Below are positions 7,601 through 64,000 of a stretch of DNA of 64,000 nucleotides, one piece after another. The position numbers and the translations under genes were made by a program. Source of the DNA: Minisyncoccia bacterium (GTDB lineage: Bacteria; Patescibacteriota; Minisyncoccia; Phycocordibacterales; PALSA-1337); the NCBI GenBank assembly GCA_049997795.1, contig JBEKVT010000002.1, forward strand, positions 65,664 through 129,663, in the 5' to 3' direction. Numbering within the stretch: the first letter of the stretch is position 1; every line of letters begins with the position of its first letter. The notes under the pieces are model-generated. The model did no database searches. It had not been told where the DNA came from and saw only the letters and a program-made list of their open reading frames with translations.

Positions 7601-8221
7601 ATGAAACCATCCAAGCGCGTCGCAATATTCTCTTTTGTTCTGTCGGCATTCCTCCTGCTCAGTGCTTTCTTGACAGCTTCCTATGCGGAGGCGAGGATCG
7701 GCGTGGGCATGGGCTCGAGCGAGATACGCATAACTGACTCGGTGAAACCCGGCGGCATATACAAGCTCCCGACCCTGCGCATCTTCAATACGGGCGACGA
7801 GACGACTACCTACGGCATGGACGTCAGCTATCACGAGGATTACAAACAGATCCGGCCGGCGCCGGGATGGTTCACTTTCAGTCCCACCACCTTCACTCTC
7901 GATGCCGGGAAAAGCCAGGACGTCTCGATCACCATGGTCGTTCCCGTCAAGGCGGTACCGGGCGATTATTTCGCTTTCCTCGAGGGCGGTCCGGTCTCGA
8001 GCAACAAGCCCGGCACCACCGTCGGCGTGGCCGTCGCGGCAAAATTGTTCTTCACCGTGGCGCCCGCGAACATCTTCCAGGCAGCCTTATATAGGATATC
8101 TTCGTTCTTCTCGGCATACTCGCCGTGGACATGGATAGTCTTGGGCCTCGTCCTGTGCGCCGTCGTCGTGTATCTATTCAGGAGATTCTTCTCGCTAAGC
8201 TTTGCCGTGCGGAAGAGATAG
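7601..8221 (+). CDS. CscA-like surface protein: signal peptide, beta-sandwich ectodomain, C-terminal TM anchor and a basic tail (DUF916/DUF3324-type architecture)
   Basis: N-terminal signal MKPSKRVAIFSFVLSAFLLLSAFLTASYA. Ectodomain motif FSPTTFTLDAGKSQDVSITMVVP...PGDYFAFLEG. C-terminal TM WIVLGLVLCAVVVYLF followed by RRFFSLSFAVRKR. Confidence 0.45.
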   Translation: MKPSKRVAIFSFVLSAFLLLSAFLTASYAEARIGVGMGSSEIRITDSVKPGGIYKLPTLRIFNTGDETTTYGMDVSYHEDYKQIRPAPGWFTFSPTTFTLDAGKSQDVSITMVVPVKAVPGDYFAFLEGGPVSSNKPGTTVGVAVAAKLFFTVAPANIFQAALYRISSFFSAYSPWTWIVLGLVLCAVVVYLFRRFFSLSFAVRKR

Positions 8222-8227
8222 AAAAAA

Positions 8228-9208
8228 GTGGCCAACAAGAACCTGCGCATCGCGCTAGTCTCTGCCTTAACGGTCAGTGCCGTACTTTTCGCGGGGAAGG
8301 CCCTTGCGGTCGACATCACTGCCACAGTAAGTCTGGGCGTTTTCGTCCCAGGCCAACCATCCAATCTGGCGGCGACCATCGGAGACAAGAGCGTCGAGCT
8401 GTCGTGGTCGCCGCCGTCGAACGGCGGATCGGCCATAACCGATTATATAGTCGAATACAGGCTCTCGTTGGGCGGCAGCTGGTCTTCGTTCGATGTCGGT
8501 TCCGGCGGTGATACGTCGGCGACCTTGACCGGCTTGTCCAACGATAATTCATACGACTTTCGCGTCTCCGCCGTAAACGCCATAGGCCAGGGTCCGCCAT
8601 CGCCTGTAGTGAGCGCCACGCCCGGACCGCCCGCTCAGGTCATCGTCCAGAGCTTCCTCGATCTCTATGTGCCGAGCATAGGGACGAATGTGCGCATAAC
8701 TAACGAAGGGCTGACAGCTTATGAATACAACTATACTTGGTGCGTGACCGACTCAGACACGAACCTGTGCGGCGGAGGCGACGATGTCTTCGACTCTACG
8801 GCCGCCAAATGGATCGATCCAGGACAGAACTACGATACGACGTTGAATTCCACCGTACCGTCTCCGGGGAACTATTGGTTCCATGTCGCCGTGCAGTACG
8901 GCTCTGACTCCTCGCAAGCAAGCCAGTCTTTTACAGCTGTTACGGAAACCACGCCTCCGCCGCCACCGCCACCACCGGGTGGTGGAGGGGGCGGCGGAAG
9001 TGGAGGAGCTCCGGCTTGCGTCGGCGCAGATTTCAACCATGACGGCAGGGTGGATTCGGTGGATTTCTCGATAATGCTCGCCTACTGGGGAACTTCCGGA
9101 CCGATCAATAATCCTTGCGTGGACATAAACGGCGACAAAAAGATCGATTCCGTGGACTTCTCGATCCTGCTCTACCAATGGGGCAGGAGCCCTATCCCTT
9201 TTAAATAG
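8228..9208 (+). CDS. Secreted protein with a fibronectin type III domain, a Pro/Gly linker and a C-terminal dockerin-like double calcium-binding repeat
   Basis: GTG start with a signal peptide. FN3 signature SVELSWSPPSNGGSAITDYIVEYR...YDFRVSAVNAIG. Linker PPPPPPPPGGGGGGGSGG. Dockerin repeats DFNHDGRVDSVDFSIMLAYWG and DINGDKKIDSVDFSILLYQWG. Confidence 0.6.
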   Translation: MANKNLRIALVSALTVSAVLFAGKALAVDITATVSLGVFVPGQPSNLAATIGDKSVELSWSPPSNGGSAITDYIVEYRLSLGGSWSSFDVGSGGDTSATLTGLSNDNSYDFRVSAVNAIGQGPPSPVVSATPGPPAQVIVQSFLDLYVPSIGTNVRITNEGLTAYEYNYTWCVTDSDTNLCGGGDDVFDSTAAKWIDPGQNYDTTLNSTVPSPGNYWFHVAVQYGSDSSQASQSFTAVTETTPPPPPPPPGGGGGGGSGGAPACVGADFNHDGRVDSVDFSIMLAYWGTSGPINNPCVDINGDKKIDSVDFSILLYQWGRSPIPFK

Positions 9209-9214
9209 AACGCC

Positions 9215-10099
9215 ATGCGCAGGATATCTTTATCGGATCTGATATTCGGGATAGCGATCGGATCTTTGGCGCTCTTGCCGCGCGGCGTATCTGCTGCAGA
9301 GTTGAGCTTCAAACTGATCTCTGATGATGCCGCCGGCAACGGAGCGGCCGTCGTCGAGGCCCGTATCGACTCACAAGAGAAGGACATAAACGCGATCGAC
9401 GGCATAATCAGCCTCGTGGGCACGGGAAAGACGGATATATCGTCGGTCGGGATAGAGACCGGAGGGTCGGTATTGACGTTCTGGCCGGTCCCGCCGCAGT
9501 ATTCTCCGACCGAAAAAGTCATCCGCTTCACCGGGGGAGTGCCGAACGGCTTCGATCGCGAGGGACCTCTCTTCCGCATGCATATCTTCACGTCCTCGCC
9601 TGGCGACGTGACCATCTCGTGGATCGGCGGCTCCGCCTATCTTAATGACGGCAAGGGCACTAGAGAGGGCATATACGCCAAATCCATCGTTGTGTCACTC
9701 GCCCCGCAAAACCAGAGCACATCTAACGGGTATTCTTACGACAAGACGCCGCCGAATTTCGATTCTGTCCTCGTCGGACGAGATCCGAACACGTACGGCG
9801 GAAGATATTTCGTGAGCTTCCACGCGATCGACGACATCTCCGGCGTAGCCCGATACGAAGTCAGGGAAGGACAGGCCGTGACGAGCGTCGCGAACGGAGT
9901 CTATGTGTTCAAAGACCAGACCATGGCGACGCCGGTCTTCATCACGGCGTATGATCAGGCGGGGAACAGCAAGACGGTGACCGTCGGATCGCCATCCAAC
10001 CGGCCGAAAGACATCATGATTACGGCATTATTCGCGGTCATCCTAATCATCCTTTTCGCCGTATTCAGATACGGACATAAAAGAGCCGCCAAGAGATAG
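9215..10099 (+). CDS. Membrane-anchored surface protein with an N-terminal cohesin-like beta-sandwich module (a putative anchoring scaffoldin)
   Basis: Signal peptide, then AVVEARIDSQEKDINAIDGIISLVGTGKTDISSVGIETGGSVLTFW...GPLFRMHIFTSSPGDVTISWIGGSAYLND, which resembles the cohesin fold pattern. C-terminal TM IMITALFAVILIILFAVF plus a basic tail. Confidence 0.4.
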   Translation: MRRISLSDLIFGIAIGSLALLPRGVSAAELSFKLISDDAAGNGAAVVEARIDSQEKDINAIDGIISLVGTGKTDISSVGIETGGSVLTFWPVPPQYSPTEKVIRFTGGVPNGFDREGPLFRMHIFTSSPGDVTISWIGGSAYLNDGKGTREGIYAKSIVVSLAPQNQSTSNGYSYDKTPPNFDSVLVGRDPNTYGGRYFVSFHAIDDISGVARYEVREGQAVTSVANGVYVFKDQTMATPVFITAYDQAGNSKTVTVGSPSNRPKDIMITALFAVILIILFAVFRYGHKRAAKR

Positions 10100-10182
10100 G
10101 ATAGCGGAGCTTTCGGTGGCGTCGTGATCGTAAACGATCACGACATCCTACCGAAATATAGTCACTTCGTTCCTTATTTCGG

Positions 10183-10253
10183 TGGACCTAGGGGGAGTCG
10201 AACCCCCGCCTCGGCAATGCGAATGCCGCGTAATACCACTTTACTATAGGCCC
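10183..10253 (-). tRNA. tRNA-Ala (anticodon CGC)
   Basis: The reverse complement GGGCCTATAGTAAAGTGGTATTACGCGGCATTCGCATTGCCGAGGCGGGGGTTCGACTCCCCCTAGGTCCA has a G3:U70 pair, anticodon loop TTCGCAT and T-loop TTCGACT. Confidence 0.75.
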
Positions 10254-10371
10254 CAGCGAGGTGCGAAATGAATATACCATGTCCATTCCGTCCGAGCGAC
10301 AGGCCTATATGAGCTAAGCGATCATAGGCCCGGCCGCCGCCTGCGGGTGCTTCTTGGCGGCTCTTTCAATG

Positions 10372-10442
10372 TCGGGGCGCCGAGAATCGAACTCGGACCT
10401 CACGCACCCGAAGCGTGTATACTACCACTATACTACGCCCCG
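10372..10442 (-). tRNA. tRNA-Pro (anticodon CGG)
   Basis: The reverse complement CGGGGCGTAGTATAGTGGTAGTATACACGCTTCGGGTGCGTGAGGTCCGAGTTCGATTCTCGGCGCCCCGA has C1:G72 (a Pro hallmark), anticodon loop TTCGGGT with G37, and T-loop TTCGATT. Confidence 0.75.
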
Positions 10443-10444
10443 TG

Positions 10445-10517
10445 TGGACCATACCGGACTCGAACCGGTCACCTCACCCATGCCATGGGTGCGCTCTACC
10501 AGATGAGCTAATGGCCC
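10445..10517 (-). tRNA. tRNA-Ala (anticodon GGC)
   Basis: The reverse complement GGGCCATTAGCTCATCTGGTAGAGCGCACCCATGGCATGGGTGAGGTGACCGGTTCGAGTCCGGTATGGTCCA has G3:U70 and anticodon loop ATGGCAT. Confidence 0.8.
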
Positions 10518-10608
10518 GTCATTCTGGCGCCTCCACTCTATCATAATTTGATGATTTTTCAAGAATGCCGTAAGCTTGGGGACGTGCCGACCGATCGGCT
10601 CGCGATTC

Positions 10609-10682
10609 CGGGCTGTAGTATAGTGGTAGTATACATCCATGGGGTGGATGCGGTCCGGGTTCGATTCCCGGCAGCCCGACCA
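10609..10682 (+). tRNA. tRNA-Pro (anticodon GGG), 3' CCA encoded
   Basis: CGGGCTGTAGTATAGTGGTAGTATACATCCATGGGGTGGATGCGGTCCGGGTTCGATTCCCGGCAGCCCGACCA has C1:G72 and anticodon loop ATGGGGT with G37. Confidence 0.8.
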
Positions 10683-10708
10683 GTGCGATTCGTTGGCGTG
10701 AATTATCA

Positions 10709-10782
10709 GCACCCTTAGCTCAGTCGGCTAGAGCGCGCCCTTCACACGGGCGAGGTCGCAGGTTCGAGCCCTGCAGGGTGCA
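10709..10782 (+). tRNA. tRNA-Val (anticodon CAC)
   Basis: GCACCCTTAGCTCAGTCGGCTAGAGCGCGCCCTTCACACGGGCGAGGTCGCAGGTTCGAGCCCTGCAGGGTGCA has anticodon loop TTCACAC. Confidence 0.85.
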
Positions 10783-10805
10783 CAACAAAAATAGGGGGAA
10801 ATAAA

Positions 10806-58627: not shown

Positions 58628-58891
58628 TCAACCTCTGTGGCTATTCACCACCTCGTTGATGTGCTTGTTCAGCAGCCTCTCCCGGCGGATCGCGAAGTAG
58701 ATCGCAAGCGAGACACAGACTGCCCAGATGGGAAGAAATTCCATCTTCCAGAATTCATCCTGGTGGGACTTGAGCCAGTCGCTCGCAACGATGAGAGTGA
58801 TGGCGAGAGCGAGGAATGACAGCGCGGCGGGGACGATGGAGAAAAAAACGGAAAGCCGTCCCAGCTTGTCCAACTCTTTGTCGATGTTCAT
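58628..58891 (-). CDS. Small hypothetical membrane protein (87 aa)
   Basis: AAGGGG Shine-Dalgarno upstream on the minus strand. Two TM helices. Confidence 0.45.
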   Translation of the reverse strand: MNIDKELDKLGRLSVFFSIVPAALSFLALAITLIVASDWLKSHQDEFWKMEFLPIWAVCVSLAIYFAIRRERLLNKHINEVVNSHRG

Positions 58892-59018
58892 GATAAACCC
58901 CTTCTAAATGATTTCTGTCTCTTCTTTCGCGGCCGGAGGTGGCGCTTCAGATTCGACAGGATAGCTTCTTATCTTCTTACATTATACTACTTTAGTGGTT
59001 ATTTGTCAATAGCCCAAC

Positions 59019-60623
59019 CTATACCTTCCCGAACGGTTCGATCTCGACGATGAAGGTGGCGCCCTTCCCTTCCCCGGCCGACTCGGCGCGGATCGTGCCG
59101 TGGTGGGCCTCCACCAGCTGTTTGGCCACGAAAAGGCCGAGGCCGGTGCCTTTGATGTTGACCTTCGAGGCGTTCTCGGCCCGGGAGAATTTCTGGAAGA
59201 GGTGCGGCAGGACTTTCGGGTCGATGCCGACGCCGGTGTCCTTGACGGCGAAGACGAAGAGGTGCCGCGGCCGGTCGAAGGCGAGAGTCACGGCGACCGA
59301 GCCGGACGGCGTGTATTTCATGGAATTGTCGATCAGGTTGGCGATGACCTGTTTGAATTTATCGCGGTCGGCGGTGATGCGGTAATCGATGTTGCTGTCC
59401 TCGGCGGTGAAGGAGAACTTGAGGCCGGCCTTCTCGATGTTCGGCTGGAGCTCGGCGATGACGTCTTCGATCAAGGTCTTCAGGTCAATGGTCTCGAAGT
59501 TGTACTTCATGGTGCCGAGTTCGATCCTGGAGACGTTCAGATAGTCATCGACGATGCTGACCAGGGTGTTGGTCGAATCGAAGATGTGCCGGATGCCGTC
59601 AAGGGCTTGCCGGCCGAGCTCCCCCATGTCGCCCTCAAGAAGGAGCGAGGCGTAGCCTTTCATGGCCGAGAGAGGGGCCCGCAGCTGATGCGTGGCGAAG
59701 GATATGAACTCCGACTTCTGCCGGTCCAGCTCCGTCAGCCGCTCGTTCGCCTTCTCCAGGTCATCCGCCAGCTTTTGGATGCGCTCGCGTTGAAGAACTT
59801 CTTTAATAACACTTCGAATTAAGAAAACACCCGTAATTATGACTAAAACAAAAAGAATCCCGTTTATAATAATATCTTCGAATGAAATCGAAAGCAGTGT
59901 CCTGACAAAGATAAAAATGGAAAGTGCAAAGACCAACAATTCGGTTGCGATAACCTTTATGTTCAAAAAGTGTAGTTTCAATATTGCATAAGCCGTGAAG
60001 CCGACAAATAAAATCAAGCTTGGCGCATCAAGGAGGGTAAAGTCAAAAACATTAAAATATACAGGCAATATAACGCTGAATGATAGAGCTGCAAGGCTAT
60101 AAGATGAAACCCCAAGAAGGATGAACCTTAATTGTAATTTTGATATTCCTGTAGCCTTCTTTTGGGCTTGATATATAAGATAAATAAACGAACAGATGTA
60201 AAGCAGAAAATACAGCGCGTATATTGTGAAGAATGGCCCTAAATGACCTTGATAACCTAGCACGGTCAGACGATCAATTCCACTGACAACATATCCGTCT
60301 AAATAACAAATAGCGAAGAGGAAAATGCTGGGTATAAAAATGCCTATTTTTTGCCACAGTGGAATTCTTTTTAAATCAATGTTACATATTTCAAGAATCC
60401 AGATTAGGCCGGTTAGTGGTACAAGTGTCGTAAACGCATAACTGCTTCGTAGAATAATCAGGGTTGGGTAGAATCTGAACAAATAATCAAATATGATGGA
60501 AATGACTGTGCTAAGACTAAATACAGCAAAACCATAATTTAATCTTTCATTCGGTTTTCGTAACCAGACTATCAACCCAAGAAAAAGGTTGAGTATCCCG
60601 GATAATAAGATAATGACAGACAT
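59019..60623 (-). CDS. Sensor histidine kinase with an N-terminal polytopic (7TM-receptor-type, HisKA_7TM-like) sensor domain. The sensor part is AT-rich and the kinase core GC-rich.
   Basis: About 8 TM helices over the first ~270 aa, then a coiled-coil linker (QRERIQKLADDLEKANERL), an H-box FATHQLRAPLSAMKGY, an N-box LIDNSMKYT, G1 VKDTGVGID and G2 GTGLGLFVAKQLV. The nucleotide composition switches near 59800. Confidence 0.85.
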   Translation of the reverse strand: MSVIILLSGILNLFLGLIVWLRKPNERLNYGFAVFSLSTVISIIFDYLFRFYPTLIILRSSYAFTTLVPLTGLIWILEICNIDLKRIPLWQKIGIFIPSIFLFAICYLDGYVVSGIDRLTVLGYQGHLGPFFTIYALYFLLYICSFIYLIYQAQKKATGISKLQLRFILLGVSSYSLAALSFSVILPVYFNVFDFTLLDAPSLILFVGFTAYAILKLHFLNIKVIATELLVFALSIFIFVRTLLSISFEDIIINGILFVLVIITGVFLIRSVIKEVLQRERIQKLADDLEKANERLTELDRQKSEFISFATHQLRAPLSAMKGYASLLLEGDMGELGRQALDGIRHIFDSTNTLVSIVDDYLNVSRIELGTMKYNFETIDLKTLIEDVIAELQPNIEKAGLKFSFTAEDSNIDYRITADRDKFKQVIANLIDNSMKYTPSGSVAVTLAFDRPRHLFVFAVKDTGVGIDPKVLPHLFQKFSRAENASKVNIKGTGLGLFVAKQLVEAHHGTIRAESAGEGKGATFIVEIEPFGKV

Positions 60624-60626
60624 GAT

Positions 60627-61697
60627 TTATACAGATATAAATTTATTAACAAAATTCCTTCCTAGTATATTCCCCATAATATCCCCAGACGTCTCTCCGT
60701 TATTGCATTTCTTCGCGGCCAGATATACACATCCTATGTTGTAAGCAATTCTATTGTACAGGGCATCCGATCCAAAGATAAGTTTTGAGCTTGGTATTAT
60801 ATTAAGAGTTCTTGAAATGACTGACGTGGACACGCCTGAGGTATCGAAAAACAGATTGCTGTATTTATCACTCAGTTTCTTTATCAAACGATAATCAATG
60901 TTAACCATACCGTAATGACCTATGTGGGCAATAATGACCTTTATGTCATAAGCGCTCAGAAGTTCACTGGCTCCATCTTTATCACAGAAATTTTCTAGTA
61001 AACCATTTGTCCTACTTCGTTCGATATAACCGTATTTCCTGTTTATCTTAAGGGTATAATTTGAAATGCCGCCGTGGAACAAAACATAAAGTTTGTATTT
61101 GGCGGCAGTCTCGTATATCTTGCGGAGTTTTTTTGCAATCTCATCGCCGTTTTTATATGGTTCTGGTTTGAAATTCTGAAGATTGGGGTGAAATTTAAGT
61201 CCAACAATATGGTAATTATCTACATACGACTTTATGGTGGATTCGATTTCTGAAAGATTGATGTTGTGGATGTCGACGGAACCAAGAAGCATAAATCTAG
61301 TATCCTGAGAATATTTTTTACCGACGTTTTCTGTCGGCGCCCATGGGTCGAGAGACAAAAGAATGCTTTTATCGGCTAGTGATGCTTCCATTTCTTCAAG
61401 GATTCGATCAGCATTAGTTTTTTTGTAAGTATGCTCAATCATAGAGAACACACTCCTAGGAAAAAGTTTAAAGTACAATCGTGATCCTATCTTTTCAAGT
61501 TTACTGTAATTAAATTTTTCTAAAATTCCTGGGCTCAAATAATCTTCGTGGCAGCATTCATCGACAATTTCTTCATAATGGACAACGCCCATAACGTCAA
61601 TCGGGTGAATGTGAGTGTCAATGATCCGAAAACTTAAATCATTTTTTAGTTTTCGTACATCTTTTAGGACCTCTATAATTTGTCTTTTGTACATCAA
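60627..61697 (-). CDS. Metal-dependent amidohydrolase-2-family (TIM-barrel) hydrolase
   Basis: IIDTHIHP (HxH metal ligands), FHGG, AHIGH and FGSDA. It lies 3 nt from the sensor-kinase gene and overlaps the upstream gene by 4 nt. Confidence 0.65.
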   Translation of the reverse strand: MMYKRQIIEVLKDVRKLKNDLSFRIIDTHIHPIDVMGVVHYEEIVDECCHEDYLSPGILEKFNYSKLEKIGSRLYFKLFPRSVFSMIEHTYKKTNADRILEEMEASLADKSILLSLDPWAPTENVGKKYSQDTRFMLLGSVDIHNINLSEIESTIKSYVDNYHIVGLKFHPNLQNFKPEPYKNGDEIAKKLRKIYETAAKYKLYVLFHGGISNYTLKINRKYGYIERSRTNGLLENFCDKDGASELLSAYDIKVIIAHIGHYGMVNIDYRLIKKLSDKYSNLFFDTSGVSTSVISRTLNIIPSSKLIFGSDALYNRIAYNIGCVYLAAKKCNNGETSGDIMGNILGRNFVNKFISV

Positions 61698-62908
61698 AAT
61701 CCTATTTCGCTTTTAATTTCTTTTAGATTTTCAATCAGGACGTTAATCTGTTCCTTTGTGTGTGCGGTTGACACGGTCGTGCGCAGGCGAGCCTTGCCTT
61801 TCGGTACGGCCGGCCAACGAGCTGCAGGAATGAAGATGCCGCGCTCCAGGAGCTTGACGCTGGCATCCATAGCCTTTTTCTCATTTCCTATAAAAATGGG
61901 TATTATCTGCGTTCTAGAATTGAGGAAATTGATTCCGATATTCGCTAATTGGTCTTTCATATATAGCGCATTGGCAAGTACTTTCTCTCTCCTCCAGGTC
62001 TCCTCGGTTGCGATCTCGATCGACTTAATCAGACCACAGACCACCGGGGGCGCGATCGGCGCCGTGAAGATGAATGAGTCAGAAGTTATTTTGAGATAAT
62101 CGACCAAATCTTTTGAACCAACCACGAAACCACCGACCCCGCCAAAACATTTGGTGAATGTCCCCATAATCACATCGACTTGCCCTTCAACGTTGTAGTA
62201 GTCTTCGACTCCTCGGCCGTGCGGGCCAAGGATGCCAGTGCCGTGAGCATCATCGAGATAAACGATCGCTTTGTATTGTCTCGCTTGTTCAAGTATCTGG
62301 GGTAGCGGAGCGATGTCGCCATCCATACTAAAAACTCCGTCCGTCACAATCATCTTTCTTTGGGATACGGGATAATTCTTCAGTTTTTCCAGTAAGTCAT
62401 TAATGTCCAAATGCTTGTAGATCTCTTTCTTCGCACCGCTCAATCGTATACCGGCGATGGCACTCGCGTGATTGTACTCATCGCTGAAGATAATTGTGTC
62501 TTTATCTTTCGCGATTTTTTCGCTGAAGAGCGACGCCAGAGAAAATTTCGGGACATTGACTAATGCCGGGATGGTGCCGGAGTTTGCCATGTATCCAGAG
62601 ACGAACGACACTGCCGCTTCCCTGTGTTTGAACGCAGCGATTTTTTCTTCCAACTGATTATGAATCTCAAGATTGCCGGTCAGGAGACGGGCGCTGCCAT
62701 TACCGATACCCCATTTCCTTGCTCCTTGAACAGCCGCCTCGATAACACGTGGATCTGTCATCAAATCCAAATAATTATTAGTCGCGAACATTAAGACCTT
62801 TTTTCCGTTGACTACAACTTCTGGAGCATGCGGCGAAGATACTACGGGCGGGTACGGGTAAAAACCATGTTTCTTAATGAAATTTACCGCTTGAGAAAGA
62901 CTTTTCAT
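61694..62908 (-). CDS. PLP-dependent alpha-oxoamine synthase family enzyme (BioF / Kbl / serine palmitoyltransferase / CqsA-type)
   Basis: Fold-type I PLP enzyme. DDAHGTGILGPHGRG and GTFTKCFGGVGGFVVG (PLP lysine in TFTK). The length of about 404 aa is typical for this family. Confidence 0.8.
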   Translation of the reverse strand: MKSLSQAVNFIKKHGFYPYPPVVSSPHAPEVVVNGKKVLMFATNNYLDLMTDPRVIEAAVQGARKWGIGNGSARLLTGNLEIHNQLEEKIAAFKHREAAVSFVSGYMANSGTIPALVNVPKFSLASLFSEKIAKDKDTIIFSDEYNHASAIAGIRLSGAKKEIYKHLDINDLLEKLKNYPVSQRKMIVTDGVFSMDGDIAPLPQILEQARQYKAIVYLDDAHGTGILGPHGRGVEDYYNVEGQVDVIMGTFTKCFGGVGGFVVGSKDLVDYLKITSDSFIFTAPIAPPVVCGLIKSIEIATEETWRREKVLANALYMKDQLANIGINFLNSRTQIIPIFIGNEKKAMDASVKLLERGIFIPAARWPAVPKGKARLRTTVSTAHTKEQINVLIENLKEIKSEIGF

Positions 62909-63022
62909 GACTTCATTTTAACATTATCTGGTAATTTTTGCGTGTTGGATATGTGGGTAGAAATCTTATAGATGACGCGCGTAACAGATTTCTGAATTAC
63001 CTTGGTACCTTATCTTGATATA

Positions 63023-64000
63023 ATGAACGGCGTGGTTATATCAGCATATGTTGTAATCATCTGGACTGCTGCTGTACTTATTGGCAGTCTAGCTCTAGTT
63101 ATATTTCTAGGTAACAACAAACCTTCTTCGAGGGCTTTCGCCTTTACTATATCCATAGTCACCTTGTGGACAATGAGTGTTGGGCTTTTTACAGCTTCAA
63201 GGGATCCGAATCTTGCTGAATTTTGTATAAAGATGAATTTTTTCCTTGGGAGCGCTATAGCCTCATCATTTTTATATTTTTTCTTCACATTTCCTTACGA
63301 CAAAAGGCCTAACCATAAACTTGCCTTGTCTCTTGTAATGCTCCAACTTATTTTCTTATATTTATATTTTTTTACGAATATCATTGTATATGGACCAGTC
63401 CCATTAACAAATCCTTCTTCTGCTATTTGGTGGGGATGGGGATTGGGTCCAGGATATTTTGTATATAACCTATTCTTTTTCGGTTTTTTCTTGACCGGAA
63501 TCGTACTCTTATATCATAGATACCGTTTAACCAAAGATTATTCTCAAAAGAATAATCTAAAATACATGTTGTCAACAGTGATTATAGGCCTAATCCCGCC
63601 AACGCTTTTTAATCTAATTTTACCTCCATTAGGATATTTTGGTCTTAATTGGGTTGGACCAGCCAGTGGTATGTTCTGGGTACCGATTATGGCCTATTCC
63701 ATCATCCGTTATCATCAAATGAATGTACGGGTGGTGGTTACAGAGGTGCTGGCCATCGGTATGGCGTTCATTTTCTTCATGGACATCTTTATCACGATGT
63801 CGTTCGGTATTTGGGGGCGTATCGGTACCTTCGGGGCTTTCCTTGTTTTGAGCGCATATTTGATTCGCGGTGTTCTCCGGGAAGCTAAGCAGAGAGAACA
63901 GCTCGACGATCTAAACCGAAATCTCGAGCAGAAAGTCGCCGATCAGACGGTGGAGATCAGGAAGTCGTACGAAGCAGAGAAACATGCCCGCGCGGAATTG
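63023..64000 (+). CDS. Second sensor histidine kinase-like protein, 5' part only (runs off the window). It has a polytopic 7TM-type sensor domain paralogous to that of 59019-60623.
   Basis: An open frame from ATG 63023 with no stop before the window end. The start codon is uncertain because the -10-like TATAAT (63019-63024) overlaps this ATG. LVIFLGNNKPSSRAFAFTISIV resembles LIVWLRKPNERLNYGFAVFSLS of the first kinase. After the last TM helix the sequence becomes GC-rich and enters a coiled-coil linker (REAKQREQLDDLNRNLEQKVADQ). Confidence 0.6.
   Translation, partial: MNGVVISAYVVIIWTAAVLIGSLALVIFLGNNKPSSRAFAFTISIVTLWTMSVGLFTASRDPNLAEFCIKMNFFLGSAIASSFLYFFFTFPYDKRPNHKLALSLVMLQLIFLYLYFFTNIIVYGPVPLTNPSSAIWWGWGLGPGYFVYNLFFFGFFLTGIVLLYHRYRLTKDYSQKNNLKYMLSTVIIGLIPPTLFNLILPPLGYFGLNWVGPASGMFWVPIMAYSIIRYHQMNVRVVVTEVLAIGMAFIFFMDIFITMSFGIWGRIGTFGAFLVLSAYLIRGVLREAKQREQLDDLNRNLEQKVADQTVEIRKSYEAEKHARAEL

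Follow-up and report, generated by a model that had tools for sequence, protein, structure and literature searches.

In the Cqs system of Vibrio and the Lqs system of Legionella, the gene for a synthase of the α-oxoamine synthase (AOS) superfamily adjoins that of a polytopic sensor kinase without a large periplasmic domain, and a lipophilic, aminoketone-derived product is sensed in the membrane. The sensors have six transmembrane (TM) helices, and the systems include a hybrid receiver or the regulator LqsR. Another arrangement is found in the pherotypes of staphylococcal agrBDC and Bacillus comQXP, where the signal is a ribosomal peptide; the variable block consists of the enzyme that modifies the signal and of the kinase's N-terminal membrane sensor, and the core is conserved.

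For CPR genomes, Bernard et al. 2020 (PMC7567580) described 51 syntenies of a 'CqsA homolog' with a kinase and read them as a possible complete quorum-sensing system, so the general idea of AOS-kinase synteny in CPR is already published as an in-silico prediction. That study pooled all AOS that are 25-28% identical to LqsA/JqsA, including Kbl enzymes encoded next to Tdh. The available parts of its text and supplements make no mention of an amidohydrolase, a methyltransferase or 7TM, and they do not describe a separate clade, a co-variation of sensor and tailoring enzyme or an intragenic mosaic in third-codon-position GC content (GC3). We came across no earlier account of the evidence from cassettes and mosaic presented here.

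The window, i.e., the 64 kb stretch of patescibacterial DNA analysed here, has an AOS gene at positions 61694-62908 on the minus strand. An earlier note on this DNA had assigned its 404 aa product to the PLP-dependent AOS family and had placed it outside any biotin or threonine-degradation context, and both statements are borne out. The protein matches PF00155 (E=6.9e-56) and has the PLP lysine and the His/Asp/His/Arg set of the AOS superfamily (PLP fold type I): K253, in the motif GTFTKCFGG, occupies in alignments the position of the PLP lysine in AOS enzymes of known structure, and the catalytic residues are all intact (N44, N45, Y46, H147, D219, H222, T250, K253, R374 and R376). No homologues of Tdh, BioA, BioB or BioD were found in the window (tblastn, E<=1e-8), and every locus of the AOS clade described below lacks Tdh and BioA/B/D genes. 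Among the nearest relatives outside the clade, 53 loci have Tdh adjacent (housekeeping Kbl) and six have BioA/B adjacent (BioF).

The window protein reaches none of the NCBIfam equivalog cut-offs. The top NCBIfam scores are with BioF/Kbl-type models (TIGR01825, 407.6; bioF, TIGR00858, 406.8); the latter is just short of its cut-off of 426.45, which three deeper members of the clade do pass (L023, 445.5; P0094, 436.3; P0115, 458.1). The Kbl models NF005394 and TIGR01822 give 381.9 (cut-off 460) and 311.9 (493), and there is no Tdh gene nearby. The serine palmitoyltransferase (SPT) models NF047600, NF047599 and NF047603 are far under cut-off, at 343.6/640, 284.7/500 and 228.2/670, and the CqsA model NF005526 gives 174.1 bits against a cut-off of 428, with 177-211 bits for the relatives in the clade. 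The best PDB match is the broad-specificity Thermus thermophilus BioF/KBL enzyme (7POA/8S1Y; 296 bits), which, with Tdh-linked Kbl, is the closest relative and has the same catalytic residues. Sphingobacterium SPT is the second-best group (262 bits), and V. cholerae CqsA ranks last among the 54 PDB AOS matches, with a partial alignment of 63 bits. Several members of the clade are annotated publicly as 8-amino-7-oxononanoate synthase.

A firm position within BioF, which the earlier note had considered, is not what the trees show. In neighbour-joining trees of 12-69 sequences, from which CqsA and ALAS were left out, the AOS sits in a monophyletic patescibacterial clade, apart from both the Tdh-adjacent Kbl and the BioA/B-adjacent BioF enzymes. 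The clade has an insertion of 11-20 aa at residues ~117-133 of the window protein (16 aa after 'IPAL' in the window), and this insertion is missing from the Thermus AOS and from every Kbl, BioF and SPT sequence sampled. Two Zoogloea AOS are extended there too, by a similar number of residues. Judged from these sequence comparisons, the enzyme is a member of a separate, Patescibacteria-specific clade and not a CqsA, BioF, Kbl or SPT.

The AOS gene is coupled to that of an amidohydrolase, as the earlier note had stated; the ATG of the latter overlaps the TGA of the former by 1 nt (TGATG). The amidohydrolase (60627-61694/61697, minus strand; 355/356 aa) is a TIM-barrel protein and the putative tailoring enzyme of what we refer to as type A loci. 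It belongs to the amidohydrolase superfamily PF04909, with 41.9 bits against a gathering threshold of 26.4, a (β/α)8 barrel, HxH at β1 and Asp at β8. From the alignment and the secondary structure, an invariant Lys at the end of β4 and His residues at β5 and β6 appear to resemble the signature of a binuclear centre. Its family is very small and hardly occurs outside this module. In fold, the protein comes closest to uncharacterised proteins, lactonases and decarboxylases, and identity to PF04909/COG2159-COG3618 members (LigW, IDCase, γ-resorcylate decarboxylase, LigI, fuconolactonase and CAC3332) is only 11-25%. The gene of the first kinase, HK1, begins 3 nt past the amidohydrolase stop and therefore shares the operon rather than merely flanking it; the AOS, the amidohydrolase and HK1 form one tightly packed minus-strand operon.

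The two enzymes are bracketed by two polytopic kinases, also in agreement with the earlier note, and the second, HK2, is divergent. The gap between AOS and HK2 (62909-63022) is 114 nt, where about 115 had been given. It is AT-rich and presumably holds the promoters of both genes; because a consensus scan of these 114 nt found no σ70 site, we infer this assignment from position. With HK1 in the same operon and HK2 this close by, the synthase adjoins its sensor kinases as in the Cqs and Lqs loci.

HK1 (59019-60623, minus strand) consists of a polytopic sensor domain (aa 1-~280; 59784-60623) and a kinase core (59019-59783) with the DHp H-box FATHQLRAPL and HATPase_c (PF00512, PF02518). HK2 (63023-64000, plus strand) starts with an ATG at 63023 and extends beyond the window; in the longer contig L001 the full-length protein has 559 aa and the H-box ITQHHLRTPV. 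Public gene calls give shortened versions of both kinases. The sensor of HK2 matches HisKA_7TM (PF16927; aa 14-235, E=3.5e-13, 50.4 bits against a cut-off of 28.6). Pfam does not report this match for HK1 at E<=0.01; however, the HK1 and HK2 sensors are related by BLAST (E=8e-14) and the HK1 homologues P0177 and P0179 bear PF16927, and therefore HK1 is a divergent member of the same family. The earlier note had looked to the 6 TM topology of CqsS/LqsS, which did not hold: hydropathy gives ~9 hydrophobic segments in HK1 and ~7 in HK2, and an AlphaFold (AF2) model of HK1 residues 1-285 has nine membrane helices and a β-hairpin loop (pLDDT 80). Neither hydropathy nor the HK1 model indicates a sizeable extracytoplasmic domain, which would fit ligand detection inside the membrane. 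None of the NCBIfam sensor models matches the sensors (the best is LuxN, E=0.026). A cognate response regulator, which the note had thought worth looking for, did not turn up as a receiver domain or an LqsR-like protein in the window. Most of the related loci also lack a response regulator; in two relatives, a stand-alone receiver gene is directly downstream, in one case within a type IV pilus gene cluster.

The arrangement is found across the Patescibacteria. In 16 of about 19 related loci the clade AOS is linked to a polytopic kinase (the window/L001, L007, L008, L009, L010, L017, L023, L089, L090, L092, L171, L173, L174, L175, L177 and the P0008 locus), and an adjacent kinase is missing at three clade loci (L013, L176 and L011). 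AOS identity across the related loci is 42-84% and the outer flanks differ; recurrence in such differing surroundings means that the arrangement is not chance. Two types of cassette occupy the same slot: type A has the amidohydrolase, and type B has an ADC-like protein and an ICMT/PEMT-like membrane methyltransferase. A PlsC-family (PF01553) acyltransferase gene is a recurrent neighbour, immediately upstream of AOS in L092 and L023 and within ~6 kb in eight other loci (L001, L007, L008, L090, L174, L175, L177 and the P0008 locus).

The sensor and the cassette type vary together. A tree of the HK1-type sensor domains splits into A and B according to cassette type in all 200 bootstrap replicates, and the sensor of the window's HK1 clusters with those of the other amidohydrolase-type loci. 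Trees of the kinase core and of the AOS give this split in 0 of 200 replicates and have the window sequences nested among type B relatives. Sensors of type A share an identity of 0.37 among themselves and those of type B one of 0.55, against 0.21 between the types. For example, the window's HK1 and its counterparts in the type B loci L089 and L175 share 75-77% identity in the core but only 30-36% in the sensor. L175 is also the locus with the AOS closest to that of the window; between the two, the AOS (84%), the HK1 core (77%), HK2 from aa 231 to the end (60%) and PlsC (57%) are conserved, and the HK1 sensor (36%) and HK2 sensor (44%) have diverged. The HK2 sensor represents a third class that is found in loci of both cassette types.

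Base composition displays the same pattern. A low-GC island of ~3.9 kb (59785-63705) has a GC content of 0.33-0.50, compared with 0.50-0.61 elsewhere in the window, and both of its borders lie inside kinase genes. GC3 in HK1 is 0.20-0.48 to aa ~278 and 0.80-0.96, i.e., host-like, from aa ~281, so that the step falls at the junction of sensor and kinase. In HK2 it is ~0.3 to aa ~225 and climbs across aa ~225-235 to 0.7-0.96. The amidohydrolase has a GC3 of 0.36, the AOS has an intermediate value of 0.52, and the flanking genes have 0.77-0.85; PlsC, at 0.78, is host-like and outside the exchanged cassette. This mosaic is repeated in L175, L089, L007, L008, L092 and L023. These observations suggest that the sensing halves of the kinases were swapped in together with the tailoring enzyme, which may hint at a signal or lipid of the cell's own making and a matching receptor. 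A synthase/receptor pair would be expected to leave evidence of this kind, although the co-variation could also come from the co-transfer of adjacent DNA alone, without a functional link.

Our best reading is that the module is Cqs/Lqs-like in logic and not by family membership. We give about an even chance to its being a biosynthesis-plus-sensing module specific to Patescibacteria, which makes a tailored aminoketone-type molecule and has co-inherited 7TM sensors. To judge from the chemistry of its family, the AOS would form an α-amino-ketone or an α-amino-β-keto acid by condensing an acyl-thioester and an amino acid. The product would then be modified by the tailoring enzyme, here of the metal-dependent amidohydrolase fold and in the sister loci the ADC-like protein and the ICMT/PEMT-like membrane methyltransferase. 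A small, probably lipophilic molecule would be detected within the membrane by the HisKA_7TM-type sensor of HK1, HK2 possibly being a second detector, and the signal would pass to a distal response regulator. The gene order and its conservation, the clade of the AOS, the co-variation of domains and the mosaic composition are observed; we infer that the sensor binds the pathway product, be it a signal or a membrane constituent. The tailoring enzyme and sensor domain would be inherited as one exchangeable cassette and the AOS and kinase core would stay put; in the window lineage, an amidohydrolase/sensor-A cassette of a donor with low GC content would have taken the place of an ancestral ADC/methyltransferase/sensor-B cassette.

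As in the agr and comQXP pherotypes, the variable block comprises an enzyme and a sensor, the core is conserved and the junction is at the boundary of sensor and kinase; the proposed precursor differs in being an enzyme-made small molecule, and no peptide precursor gene is evident in the module. By analogy, the cassettes would be 'dialects', the small-molecule counterpart of peptide pherotypes. It is tempting, if tentative, to regard the modules as a signalling family of the Patescibacteria's own, with an aminoketone scaffold from the AOS, with dialects of tailoring enzyme and 7TM sensor exchanged at the sensor/kinase junction, and possibly with control over type IV pili and host attachment.

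The earlier note had offered a sphingoid or aminolipid pathway as its alternative, and this is the strongest competitor, if a rather doubtful one. An SPT-like or sulfonolipid-synthase-like AOS would act on scavenged long-chain acyls, PlsC and the PEMT-like enzyme would finish a structural membrane lipid, and the kinases would monitor the state of the membrane instead of a diffusible signal. The recurrent PlsC-family neighbour suits this role at least as well as signalling, and the membrane methyltransferase of type B loci and the second rank of Sphingobacterium SPT among the PDB groups agree with it. However, the SPT equivalog models are far under their cut-offs, the loci showed no reductase or ceramide-synthase-like gene, PlsC is not part of the exchanged cassette, and a housekeeping pathway is not expected to swap its tailoring chemistry together with a kinase sensor domain. 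Ordinary metabolism, with the AOS a Kbl (glycine C-acetyltransferase) or BioF and the kinases unrelated to it, is improbable. The best NCBIfam scores, the clade members above the bioF cut-off, the public annotations and catalytic residues identical to those of Kbl would speak for it, but the separate clade with its own insertion, the lack of Tdh and BioA/B/D partners and the conserved operonic linkage to kinases and a module-specific amidohydrolase argue otherwise; in addition, the supplement of PMC7567580 contains AOS genes of other CPR genomes that adjoin Tdh and carry a glycine C-acetyltransferase annotation.

The Cqs/Lqs-like module proposed in the earlier note stands as regards the conserved adjacency of synthase and kinase and the co-variation of sensor and tailoring enzyme, but not as regards homology. 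True α-hydroxyketone quorum sensing by orthologues of CqsA/LqsA and CqsS/LqsS, as proposed for CPR in PMC7567580, has the cqsA-cqsS layout in its favour and the 51 'CqsA homologs' beside kinases that match a custom CqsS N-terminal HMM. It is nevertheless very improbable: the synthase is outside the CqsA/LqsA clade by score, the sensors are set apart by profile match and, in the model of HK1, by helix count, a receiver or LqsR is missing nearby, and the obligatory tailoring enzymes, the two kinases and the exchange of sensor and tailoring genes as a cassette are not known features of such loci. The sharp drop in GC could in principle reflect an assembly chimera with another organism's DNA, which we consider scarcely credible, as both junctions are in frame within intact kinase genes, the mosaic recurs in six other genomes, and six contigs (one of 657 kb) from as many separately assembled samples carry the 5.1 kb module with an identity of at least 99.98%. 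Alternative cassettes within a species were not seen among these six population contigs, and the variation is between lineages only.

The CPR/Patescibacteria are mostly uncultured episymbionts with a minimal metabolism, and they are generally thought to scavenge lipids. How they sense partners or kin is a question for which this module offers a definite candidate that lends itself to experiment: its three or four genes are amenable to heterologous expression, and its two natural variants should give different products, with sensor specificity following the variant. The AOS of this clade, variously labelled BioF, Kbl or 'CqsA homolog', can now be annotated correctly. If the link between product and sensor is true, it would provide the first ligand class for the orphan HisKA_7TM sensor domain and would demonstrate that signal and receptor are exchanged as a cassette where an enzyme makes the signal. 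The stand-alone receivers beside the module in two relatives, one of them in a type IV pilus cluster, would link it to host attachment. Should the product turn out to be a lipid instead, these presumed lipid scavengers would have an unexpected capacity for lipid tailoring.

The gene for the α-oxoamine synthase (AOS; 61694-62908, minus strand, 404 aa, Pfam PF00155) forms a head-to-tail minus-strand gene pack with an amidohydrolase gene (60627-61694, minus strand, PF04909) and the gene for a histidine kinase, HK1 (59019-60623, minus strand, HisKA and HATPase_c in Pfam). The AOS stop codon is overlapped by the amidohydrolase start codon (TGATG), and 3 nt separate the amidohydrolase stop from the HK1 start. 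The other kinase, HK2, is encoded on the plus strand from 63023, with 114 nt between its start and that of AOS, and continues past the end of the window; its N-terminus matches HisKA_7TM (PF16927), and the gene is intact (559 aa) in L001, a 657 kb contig of the same organism. Hydropathy indicates about nine hydrophobic segments in HK1, about seven in HK2 and no large external domain. An AlphaFold model (pLDDT 80) places nine membrane helices in HK1 residues 1-285, which departs from the six of CqsS and LqsS with which the earlier note had suggested comparing the kinases. Gene order, Pfam and hydropathy bear out its description of a synthase and an amidohydrolase accompanied by two polytopic kinases; both kinases do adjoin this pair, but HK1 is a member of the operon and not a mere flanking gene.

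A consensus scan found no σ70 promoter in the AOS-HK2 spacer, and Rfam searches over the window returned tRNAs only and no further RNA elements. Five tRNA genes are clustered divergently at 10181-10783, with Ala-CGC, Pro-CGG and Ala-GGC on the minus strand and Pro-GGG and Val-CAC on the plus strand. Directly after the HK1 stop is a perfect 12/12 σ70 consensus (TTGACA-17 nt-TATAAT; 58981-59009, minus strand), which precedes a conserved 87-aa ORF with two TM segments (58628-58891). Public gene sets call both kinases short (343 and 349 aa versus full ORFs of 559 and 534 aa, located at 8207-9886 and 12286-13890 of L001) and contain a spurious antisense 92-aa ORF (63010-63288, minus strand), apparently a consequence of AT-rich sensor halves in a genome that is GC-rich. 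A seeming truncation of the amidohydrolase in another contig of this population, L005, was rejected as a gene-calling artefact; the DNA is intact.

AOS missed all of the curated NCBIfam equivalog cut-offs, namely those of the models for bioF (406.8 bits, cut-off 426.45), Kbl (381.9, cut-off 460), ALAS (310.1, cut-off 338.55), CqsA (174.1, cut-off 428) and three serine palmitoyltransferases (SPT; 343.6 or less, cut-offs 500-670). Of its 54 matches to solved structures, the promiscuous Thermus BioF/KBL enzyme scores highest (296 bits) and V. cholerae CqsA lowest (63 bits). Many of the matches listed share at least 52% identity, almost all of these that have a named source come from Patescibacteria, and identity then falls sharply to 44% or less; scans of genomes and metagenomes with the AOS alignment gave about eight further loci of this clade among the matches listed. 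The whole clade is marked by an 11-20 residue insertion after 'IPAL', and its catalytic residues are all conserved.

Two other roles were considered for the enzyme. One is that AOS is a housekeeping Kbl or BioF. Distant relatives include true Kbl enzymes, with threonine dehydrogenase adjoining AOS in 53 loci, and true BioF enzymes, with BioA/BioB adjoining it in six. Neither threonine dehydrogenase nor BioA/BioB is present in the window, which agrees with the earlier note, or beside AOS in any clade locus. We consider the housekeeping role very improbable. The other is that the module makes a structural lipid, in line with the proposal of an SPT-like enzyme. The SPT scores are far below their cut-offs, and a neighbour-joining tree, which had been suggested as a check, separates the clade from Sphingobacterium SPT as well as from Kbl, BioF and the Thermus enzyme. 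We retain the structural-lipid role, as an unlikely one.

Some further AOS genes are found in related settings. An unassigned AOS of Zoogloea (L072 4579-9212, and L083) carries an insertion where the clade has its own, is sister to the clade in the neighbour-joining tree and is below the CqsA cut-off (177 of 428 bits, NCBIfam). A gene for a dCache-PAS hybrid kinase-receiver precedes it by 78 nt, and genes for an ABC exporter and an AI-2E-family transporter adjoin it; this AOS and the kinase may be another AOS-kinase signalling pair. L172 (4452-8033 of a 1.58 Mb contig, probably non-CPR) encodes an AOS of 48% identity and a shorter amidohydrolase of 26% identity, preceded by an overlapping 520-aa ORF that by eye resembles a PaaK/F390-synthetase-like adenylating enzyme and has no Pfam match; a hybrid kinase-receiver and a patatin are encoded upstream.

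A polytopic kinase is in the operon or directly beside AOS in 16 of the approximately 19 clade loci with usable context. The module exists in two main versions. Type A has the order AOS-amidohydrolase-kinase (the window and L001, L009, L092, L171 and the P0008 locus; rearranged in L174 and L010), and type B has the order AOS, ADC-like protein, ICMT/PEMT-like methyltransferase and kinase (L007, L008, L089, L090, L173 and L175). Other loci are without the tailoring gene or have a 7TM-only protein upstream (L023, L017 and L177), or are without a nearby kinase (L013, L176 and L011). The amidohydrolase family consists of only 55 clusters among 5.8 billion, and at least 16 of the 55 come from contigs equal in length to that of a clade AOS match, which implies a common contig. 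Genes for PlsC-family acyltransferases often lie near the module. PADLOC, searched for defence systems, yielded no more than generic HATPase hits. Kinase-less polytopic proteins stand directly upstream of AOS, where HK2 stands in the window, in L009 (6987-7997) and L173 (4664-6004), which match HisKA_7TM, in L017 (5392-6066), recognized by BLAST only, and in L177 (5266-5979), which has no Pfam match.

The sensor domain displays a different pattern from the rest of its kinase. In trees of 12 loci, the N-terminal sensors of the downstream kinases fall into two groups that coincide exactly with the cassette types (bootstrap 200/200), and the same split is found in 0/200 replicates for the kinase core and AOS. 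Sensor identity is 0.37 within type A, 0.55 within type B and 0.21 between them. The window AOS and kinase core are surrounded by type-B relatives. Compared with L175, a type-B locus and the one with the closest AOS of all, identity is 84% for AOS, 77% for the HK1 core, 60% for the C-terminal part of HK2 (residue 231 to the end), 57% for PlsC, 44% for the HK2 sensor and 36% for the HK1 sensor. A word-based search for wider homologues of the type-A sensor yielded 11 proteins only. Nothing in the PDB matched the sensor fold at E<=0.001, the sole likeness being that of a generic 7TM bundle to GPCRs and the adiponectin receptor, and no NCBIfam model was significant on the isolated sensor domains.

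Base composition follows the same boundary. The window is about 57% GC, and from about 59.8 to 63.7 kb this drops to 33-50%. Third-position GC (GC3) in HK1 stays at 0.20-0.48 as far as about residue 278, and from residue 281 onwards it is 0.80-0.96; in HK2 the switch is at about residues 225-235, where the Pfam 7TM domain ends. GC3 is 0.36 for the amidohydrolase, 0.52 for AOS and 0.77-0.85 for the neighbouring genes. The intragenic step is also present in L175, L089, L007, L008, L092 and L023 and is lost in low-GC hosts. Across six contigs, each from a separately assembled sample, the 5.1 kb module keeps at least 99.98% identity, and an assembly chimera can accordingly be rejected. A bias from transmembrane amino-acid composition was also rejected, because the soluble amidohydrolase is equally low and because PlsC and the last two HK2 membrane helices are GC-rich. 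At HK1 codon ~473 the window differs by one nucleotide from each of L001 and L005, which in L001 changes Leu to Pro (KVLPHLF versus KVPPHLF); the module is otherwise identical in the six assemblies. Most simply, an amidohydrolase/sensor-A block acquired from a low-GC donor would have taken the place of an ancestral ADC/methyltransferase/sensor-B block, and its right-hand junction would lie where the sensor meets the kinase core.

Beside the gene order, clade identity, conservation, co-variation and mosaicism that we observe, a pathway can be proposed. Judging from family chemistry, AOS would convert an amino acid and an acyl-thioester to an α-aminoketone or α-amino-β-keto acid; the genomic context suggests that the tailoring enzyme would modify this product and that the kinase inherited with that enzyme would detect the result through its membrane sensor. 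We give even chances to the sensor detecting the pathway product. The amidohydrolase has a confident structure model (pLDDT 95) and is closest in fold, at 11-25% identity, to uncharacterised proteins, COG3618/LigI-type lactonases and ACMSD-type decarboxylases. Its invariant pattern (HxH, Lys-β4, His-β5, His-β6, Asp-β8) resembles a binuclear hydrolase centre, as judged from alignment and secondary structure alone. Type-B loci have a decarboxylase-family protein and a membrane carboxyl/lipid methyltransferase in the amidohydrolase slot, and the product may be either a diffusible signal or a lipid of the membrane.

The output of the module may be visible in its relatives. No receiver domains were found in the window or in eight loci by tblastn with approximate CheY, PhoB and Spo0F queries. 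A stand-alone CheY-like receiver directly follows the module kinase in the P0008 locus and in L177 (9256-9711), and the P0008 module lies within a type IV pilus gene cluster (PilM/PilO/PilB...PilT/PilC/pilin), an arrangement that points tentatively to type IV pili as one output.

The agr and comQXP systems are pherotype loci with cassette behaviour. The module resembles them in this respect; it differs in that its signal would be made by enzymes and in that its variation is so far between lineages only. The Cqs/Lqs-like signalling proposed in the earlier note is partly supported, in that the synthase-kinase layout and logic are alike and the linkage is conserved, but, judged by model scores and predicted topology, the synthase and the sensor both fall outside the Cqs/Lqs families. 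Bernard et al. 2020 (PMC7567580) reported 362 CPR 'CqsA homologs', with 51 of the 362 beside kinases matching a custom CqsS N-terminal HMM; the set includes Tdh-linked Kbl. Term searches of the text and of the supplements consulted gave no mention of amidohydrolase, methyltransferase or 7TM, and the parts read are silent on a separate clade, on co-variation of the sensor and on a GC3 mosaic. The literature searched gave no other account of this AOS-kinase module.

In conclusion, the module is best described as a conserved CPR biosynthesis-plus-sensing unit, a variant of the synthase/sensor-kinase theme, with the unusual trait that the tailoring enzyme and the sensor domain are exchanged together.
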